Source of the DNA: Escherichia phage WPEC1
Reading direction: 5' to 3' (one strand)
Length of the DNA stretch: 64,000 bases
Sequence record: PV659873.1
The translations under genes were made by a program, and so were the position numbers. Shown in pieces: positions 16,641 through 17,131 of the stretch. Within the stretch, counting starts at the first letter, position 1. Each line of letters starts with the position of its first letter. Under the pieces are notes generated by a model that did no database searches, was not told the DNA's origin, and worked only from the letters and a program-made list of their open reading frames with translations.

Positions 16641-16781
16641 ATGATCACTATCACAACAAAACAAGAAAAAATTATTACAGATATTGCCGCCGTTGCCGCT
16701 ATTGCTATTATAGGTACCTACTATGACACCGCGCGACCTTCCTCCTTACATGAATGTGACTGTAGCAGAGGTTATATCTGA
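16641..16781 (+). CDS. small hydrophobic protein (46 aa)
   Basis: ORF track start 16593 is inside hairpin; ATG 16641 after RBS AAAGAGAAAA; source of an array block. Confidence 0.45.
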   Translation: MITITTKQEKIITDIAAVAAIAIIGTYYDTARPSSLHECDCSRGYI

Positions 16782-16828
16782 ACCAAGATTTAGTCATGCG
16801 GTTTCGTTAATAATTTGAGGAGGAAGGA

Positions 16829-17131
16829 ATGGAAATTACTACAGAACAAGCCCTTATCGACGAGGGTCGTAAAATCTTAGAAAAGTATTTAGGGGAGATT
16901 CATAAAAATTTTAACTGGTTCTTACAAGAAGGTCTTGACTTAAGTCGCATCTCTCCTTTCTACGATGCTGATGAGTCTTATTGCATATATGGTATTTATT
17001 TAGAAGGCGGAGAAGGAAGCGTAGCTGTAGATCTTGAGCAAGTAAATGAGAATGCAAAAGAAGCCTATGCAGAGCTACTTGAAAAATATAACATTAAAAC
17101 GGAAACTATTATTTCTCAACATGTCTGGTAA
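16829..17131 (+). CDS. hypothetical protein (100 aa)
   Basis: ORF track; RBS GAGGAGGAAGG; its first ~150 nt are copied as two array blocks. Confidence 0.55.
   Translation: MEITTEQALIDEGRKILEKYLGEIHKNFNWFLQEGLDLSRISPFYDADESYCIYGIYLEGGEGSVAVDLEQVNENAKEAYAELLEKYNIKTETIISQHVW

Follow-up and report, generated by a model that had tools for sequence, protein, structure and literature searches.

Fixed-length tiles of 77 nt in the record of Escherichia phage WPEC1: almost certainly concatenated edges of a de Bruijn assembly graph

The tile locus against a clean relative

Why should a phage genome contain four consecutive tiles of about 77 nt that are found again at other places of the same DNA? This question is raised by positions 16678-16985 of the window, by which we mean the whole stretch of 64,000 nt of the sequence record of Escherichia phage WPEC1 (PV659873.1) that was analysed. 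The original prediction regarded these positions as a single-copy native locus, from which the tiles had been copied independently of each other into arrays. When the window was compared with itself, the copies of all four tiles were located where they had been described, in arrays and in both orientations, and the tile pattern is thereby confirmed as real, with chance ruled out. The four tiles are listed below, the word edge being used for a piece of an assembly graph and the word vertex for the 77-mer at its end:

T1, 16677-16753: 7 copies; last 77 nt of edge 12223-16753, forming the vertex that borders the variable site E5932 on its left
T2, 16754-16830: 5 copies
T3, 16831-16907: 4 copies
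T4, 16908-16984: 15 copies; first 77 nt of edge 16908-23753

The comparison of the window with itself yielded 886 maximal exact matches, the lengths of which peak at 77 nt (240 matches) and then fall geometrically, with 104 matches of 78 nt, 44 of 79 nt, 8 of 80 nt and 2 of 81 nt. This short tail is close to what is expected if matches are extended by one or two bases by chance, and matches of 74-76 nt were likewise common. By clustering, about 159 exact copies of ~77-nt tiles were assigned to 37 families, and the arrays span about 10 kb of the 64 kb. The small-gene early region also contains a dispersed, GC-rich and hairpin-like repeat of 24-41 nt with the core GCGGCACCATTGCCGCCCTAC, copies of which are located as follows:

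3483-3520, about 4715-4735, 13447-13487, 14404-14447, 24091-24133 and 27399-27438: hairpin-like repeat

This repeat is natural and unrelated to the 77-nt tiles, and is probably a regulatory element or terminator of the usual intergenic kind.

The window belongs to a Phapecoctavirus-like E. coli phage, and its nearest GenBank records are those of Escherichia phages WPEC4, WPEC2 and WPEC6, which originate from hospital wastewater, have the host EC3.18 and are 155-159 kb in size, compared with 146-152 kb in relatives. All three match the window at 100% identity, but only from 16906-16908 on, which is a tile boundary. A search for published literature on the WPEC phages retrieved none. As a clean reference for mapping we used phage ETEC-TG (149,880 bp), with which the window is not collinear: it is composed of long blocks from distant places, in either orientation and with arrays between them, and the limits of the blocks fall exactly at variable sites. 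The long blocks include:

12223-16753 (mapped to 16730 in the block table), plus strand: ETEC-TG about 1035-5931 (5905 in the block table)
16908-23753, minus strand: ETEC-TG 45859-39014 (99.6% identity)
31501-41570, plus strand: ETEC-TG 58644-68723
45327-54758, minus strand: ETEC-TG 79238-69807

Contrary to the assumption of a native locus, 16678-16985 unites three unrelated places of ETEC-TG, at about 5.9 kb, 39.0 kb and 45.9 kb. The middle one is represented by a single unitig that comprises T2 and T3:

16754-16907, minus strand: T2 and T3 as one unitig of 154 nt, ETEC-TG 39090-38936 reversed, haplotype CA of site E39013

This unitig lies 6.8 kb from its home, as the T2 copy in native context is 23677-23753, the end of edge 16908-23753. 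Moreover, the other copies of T1 run on into the native neighbour (family F2), whereas the copy at 16677-16753 runs into T2. The locus is thus three graph edges (T1, then T2 with T3, then T4) that stand side by side by happenstance, and an exact search of IMG/VR for the junction 16753/16754 gave no match. An adjacent tile pair had been reported to occur twice near 5013-5168 with an altered base at the tile boundary, and such pairs, in the order T3 and T2, were found at 5015/6-5170 and 5171-5325. They carry the central bases CG and TA, respectively, compared with CA at 16830-16831, and differ from 16754-16907 only in these central one or two bases.

The two genes named for the locus did not withstand the mapping either, since both open reading frames (ORFs) are chimeric, as is the ribosome binding site (RBS) between them that had been taken as intergenic. 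In ORF 16641-16781, amino acids 2-38 are those of a homolog of ETEC-TG CDS0021 and the last eight residues come from T2, and the remainder of this homolog is present at 4785-4861 on the opposite strand. ORF 16829-17131 begins with 26 codons of a CDS0119 homolog and continues from codon 35 on with a CDS0134 homolog, the two parts sharing their frame by chance. The latter ORF aligns to CDS0134 with 83% identity and to CDS0119 with 42% over about 90 amino acids, so that these two small phage genes are paralogs.

Two further regions, 3037-3186 and 26939-27088, had been named as sources of tiles. Each of them does contain two abutting tiles, but as junctions of two long edges and not as a source. 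The same arrangement is found at two other places, the four being:

3032-3185, junction 3108/3109: long edges 1-3108 and 3109-4861, with a terminal 77-mer on each side
12145-12299, junction 12222/12223: long edges 5791-12222 and 12223-16753
23677-23830, junction 23753/23754: edges 16908-23753 and 23754-27011
26935-27088, junction 27011/27012: long edges 23754-27011 and 27012-28704

The native 1.7-kb continuation at junction 3108/3109 is located at 27012-28704. Furthermore, 23754-23830 is the reverse complement of 12223-12299, and therefore the edges 23754-27011 and 12223-16753 leave one vertex in opposite directions. What had been understood as native loci that supply tiles by copying are pasted edges, which applies to the junctions 3108/3109, 16753/16754, 16907/16908 and 27011/27012.

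Arrays, piece lengths and graph tests

The window was cut into pieces by a dynamic-programming segmentation, as calling by repeated or branching 77-mers had over-split some arrays and under-split others. In total 93 pieces, i.e. 13 long blocks and the short pieces, tile all 64,000 bases. Neighbouring pieces stand in the order of a walk through the graph in just 13 of the 92 pairs, and in essence the sequence lists edges and does not follow a path; the order of the pieces is also not sorted by length. The short pieces form seven arrays:

4862-5790: six bubble edges (154 nt, then five of 155 nt), with both alternative E39013 alleles and two E9266 alleles
28705-31500: about 24 short edges of 78-83 and 149-162 nt from at least 10 variable sites, including one 375-nt stretch that was not cleanly split
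41571-42206: five short edges
45025-45326: two short edges (149 and 153 nt)
54759-56456: 13 short edges
57598-59445: 18 short edges
61826-63601: 11 short edges, mostly of 155 nt

These seven arrays and the unitig 16754-16907, together eight stretches of short pieces, split completely, with a repeated 77-mer at both ends of the pieces. With a minimum piece length of 78 nt imposed by the segmentation procedure, 33 short pieces are 78-83 nt long, 36 are 149-155 nt long and 11 are longer, a few pieces (99-375 nt) being segmented less cleanly. The lengths of 78-83 and 149-155 nt are k+1 to 2k+1 for k=77. How the pieces are put together can be seen in the 544-nt run 57598-58141, in which pieces of 79, 78, 78, 152, 79 and 78 nt follow each other without a gap, which means that edges overlapping by 77 nt were each written in full. 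In 158 of 186 piece ends the terminal 77-mer is common to the end of another piece, and the remaining 28 probably have their partners in the part of the record outside the window. Inside the pieces, just 13 of 56,826 distinct 78-mers recur.

Compacted de Bruijn graphs were then built from the observed haplotypes and the unitigs that they predict were sought in the window. For site E45861, which has eight haplotypes, 20 short unitigs are expected at k=77, with 78 nt in six of them, 79 nt in six and 152 nt in eight, and all 20 were found exactly, compared with 7/20 at k=78 and 3/20 at k=79. For site E39013 with the haplotypes CA, CG and TA, all five unitigs predicted at k=77 (78, 78, 154, 155 and 155 nt) were found and none of the five at k=78, and the one of 154 nt is identical to 16754-16907, the T2 and T3 unit of our locus. 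Presence alone does not separate k=77 from smaller values in these tests, but a smaller k would leave gaps in the tiling. The position of the variants agrees with this value, since in 66 pairs of near-identical stretches of ~155 nt, 119 of 137 differences are located 72-82 nt from the nearer end, i.e. in the centre, and the other 18 at most 10 nt from an end of the alignment. It had been argued beforehand that fixed 77-nt units with a changed boundary base are not a product of recombination, and this argument is upheld: the variant centres the bubble edge, with k=77 on each side. The view that the tiles are reused independently of each other is likewise correct.

If the pieces are edges, exact overlaps should connect them again, and nine pieces scattered over 29.5-62.3 kb on both strands could indeed be re-joined to 23,398 nt. 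The overlaps were 77 nt in seven joins and 72 nt in the last one, which is due to the absence of the linking 83-nt edge from the window. The re-joined sequence covers one third of the window and is collinear with ETEC-TG 55819-79238 at 98.4-99.2% identity. These data show that k was 77, that the pieces are unitigs and that they were concatenated. Compared with compacted de Bruijn unitigs at SNP bubbles (2k+1 and k+1), the pieces are alike in their lengths, their terminal 77-mers, the near-uniqueness of 78-mers and the sets of unitigs, and we see no difference in structure; unusual is that a linear "complete genome" in the database is made of edges.

Other kinds of repeated units were compared with this structure as well. 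CRISPR and similar biological arrays are alike in that phage-derived units of fixed length stand head to tail. However, the units of the window come from the same genome, occur in either orientation, have no conserved repeat between them, overlap by 77 nt and vanish when the overlaps of the graph are collapsed. A CRISPR array was therefore rejected, as the units abut with 0-4 nt between them and a common repeat is absent. Copies of transposable or other mobile elements were rejected as well, because the arrays are located between blocks from distant places and not inside collinear sequence, and because the ends of the units are fixed by their distance from variable bases. An origin of the units from tRNA genes was rejected too: of the 12 tRNA genes that ARAGORN predicts in the window, T1-T4 contain none, and nine belong to the native tRNA cluster, in which no tile is involved. 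Three calls are for tRNA-Gln (56544-56616, 56621-56696 and 62543-62610), of which two form a tandem and one is read from the minus strand. All three fall on copies of the tile family ETEC-TG 68725-68801, which covers the native tRNA-Gln; since ETEC-TG has a single tRNA-Gln and three are called in the window, the artefact inflates the tRNA count.

Variable sites at the branch points

On ETEC-TG the tile families pair up, one on each side of about 15-20 positions. At each of these sites 1-3 bases within at most 10 nt are variable, often in all combinations; for instance, all eight haplotypes of AAAAT[C/T]T[C/T][C/T]GTC at ETEC-TG 45860-45863 are present in the window. Variable sites and examples of the corresponding hubs are:

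ETEC-TG 5932, 9266, 13319, 39013, 45861, 55818, 58641, 68725, 69804, 126242 and 145010: variable sites
Window 16830-16831, 5092-5093, 29093-29096 and 57754-57757: hubs

The variants are mainly transitions (C/T, A/G), besides some T/G changes and indels of 1-3 nt, and the same alleles recur in the record of WPEC4. The changes at E45861 affect codon positions 1-2, and those at E39013 and E126242 the start codon (ATG to ACG or ATA). That the branch sites are translation starts in general was rejected, as only about 3 of 13 are located at a start or an RBS according to the ETEC-TG annotation, and no sequence motif shared by the branch sites was seen. Candidate sources of the variants are context-specific base-calling errors at very high depth or cross-contamination of libraries. 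It is very improbable, in our view, that these about 15-20 sites are truly hypervariable in the phage population, with adjacent positions mutated independently. If they were, this would suggest site-specific mutation, e.g. deaminase-like editing or recurrent escape mutation, and would speak against sequencing error or library cross-contamination as the cause.

A check of whether all block boundaries fall on a grid of ~77 nt had been proposed, but there is no running grid; the ends of the tiles are instead set 77 nt from variable sites. A global 77-nt lattice is rejected by hand arithmetic, as the tile starts 3032, 12145, 16677 and 26935 differ in their residues modulo 77. This bears on the idea of a designed or synthetic sequence, such as a library of tiled oligonucleotides or a test sequence that was scrambled on purpose, which would go along with the uniform length of the units, their exact copies and the presence of all variant combinations at defined sites. 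However, there is no regular lattice over the sources and tiles only flank variable sites, public records of phage isolates from wastewater show the same structure, and the k=77 graph fully accounts for the lengths of the pieces, which makes a design extremely unlikely. An additional assembly stage with k=55 was suspected from twelve exact matches of 55 nt, but all of them derive from branch sites that are 22 nt apart (77-22=55). Matches of 55 nt are found at 44970-45024, 55708-55762, 63292-63346 and 63469-63523, with the branch sites at ETEC-TG 55796 and 55818.

That two records have their breakpoints at the same 15-20 positions of the genome could also be explained by real chimeric molecules, in which fixed DNA ends at the hubs (nicks, termini or restriction sites) were ligated during library preparation. 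If ends had been ligated, hub-proximal ones should be connected with one another, whereas in the arrays hub-distal ends abut hub-proximal ones, e.g. 28705-28783 followed by 28785-28861. Moreover, the hub and the distal ends are separated by exactly 77 nt, which no ligation process would set, and no motif common to the hubs was seen. We therefore give ligation practically no chance.

It is almost certain that the window represents a misassembly in the database, and that the tiles are an artefact of a k=77 de Bruijn assembly, the edges of which were pasted end to end. Reads of a Phapecoctavirus-like phage would have been assembled with a de Bruijn graph of final k=77, in which 1-3 neighbouring variable bases at about 15-20 positions and a few natural repeats would have led to branch points. 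Since the variable bases and the natural repeats add branching, the graph would have stayed unresolved. It would have been left with long edges between the branch points and numerous short ones, k+1 to 2k+1 nt in length, which would be the branches of bubbles and small steps around multi-variant sites. The sequence itself shows directly what followed: no single path was resolved, and the edges were written successively as one sequence, with their full 77-nt terminal vertices kept and without regard to their order and orientation in the genome. As the edges carry their full terminal vertices, every branching 77-mer recurs once per edge that touches it, and these recurrences are the tiles. A variable base exactly between two 77-mers appears as the changed base at the tile boundary.

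A k of 77 is the largest default value of SPAdes for reads of 150 nt, and we infer that the assembler was SPAdes or a wrapper of it and that a program or a manual step concatenated the edges. SPAdes normally pops simple bubbles, and since bubbles have survived here, unusual data or settings are implied. Furthermore, contigs.fasta of SPAdes is sorted by length, and the order of the pieces is neither sorted by length nor consistent with a walk.

Sister records, known artefacts and consequences

The array 57598-58141 (544 nt) was also searched in other phages. In about 117 relatives it corresponds to one place of 159 nt plus one other tile, and more than 40 matching pieces were obtained from only three records, those of the WPEC phages with the host EC3.18. 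WPEC4 (PV682947) contains within its region 39273-47183 an array of more than 6 kb (1605-7911 when counted from the start of that region) with the same pieces of 78 nt and ~155 nt, for which the annotation gives about 35 tiny hypothetical proteins. Its unitigs are as in the window and their order is different. In the same record the edge 16908-23753 is preceded by a block of ETEC-TG 130-126 kb and not by T1-T3. WPEC2 (PV691511) and WPEC6 (PV763039) gave a many-copy signal like that of WPEC4, which is known from searches only. The records of WPEC2, WPEC4 and WPEC6 are all labelled "complete genome".

That exact units of fixed length occur in both orientations, and also in three further GenBank records, might be taken as a sign of real biology, i.e. 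of 77-nt segments that are truly arrayed in the phage genome and were copied by a ruler-like or template-switching mechanism. Several observations stand against it. The units of 78 and 79 nt overlap their neighbours by 77 nt, and the set fits the unitigs of k=77 and fails at k=78; the ends of the units are defined by the distance to variable bases. In addition, essential gene modules are cut and scattered, yet the 77-nt overlaps re-join them perfectly, the order is not the same between sister records, and about 117 relatives are without the arrays. The probability that the arrays are part of a living phage is accordingly negligible. The tiles have no biological meaning and are not a real feature of the phage.

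The nearest known case is an artefact of k-mer overlap: in default SPAdes runs of phages, identical 77 bp were found at both ends of a contig from a circular or permuted genome (PMC9409062), and an equivalent of 127 bp was reported as well (PMC5923482). In both situations an exact duplication has the length of the largest k and originates in the graph, not in the phage. In the known artefact one correct contig starts and ends with the same k-mer, whereas here 93 edges are strung in 64 kb, including alternative branches of bubbles and k+1 steps, and the result goes beyond it with about 159 k-mer copies, genes in scrambled order and about 10 kb of sequence that is spurious. The present case is thus the k-mer duplication of the known SPAdes kind taken to an extreme.

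Both this sequence and that of WPEC4 hold kilobases of spurious arrays and should be flagged for curation. In the annotation, the artefact scrambles the order of the genes, creates chimeric ORFs and dozens of hypothetical proteins that do not exist, and adds calls for tRNA-Gln. Databases could be screened for such records by four signs taken jointly, namely exact repeats that are capped at a k common among assemblers, pieces of k+1 to 2k+1 nt, variants exactly k from the ends of the pieces, and a genome that re-joins via overlaps of k. The risk from such records lies in false protein families, false discoveries of repeats or arrays and false breaks of synteny.
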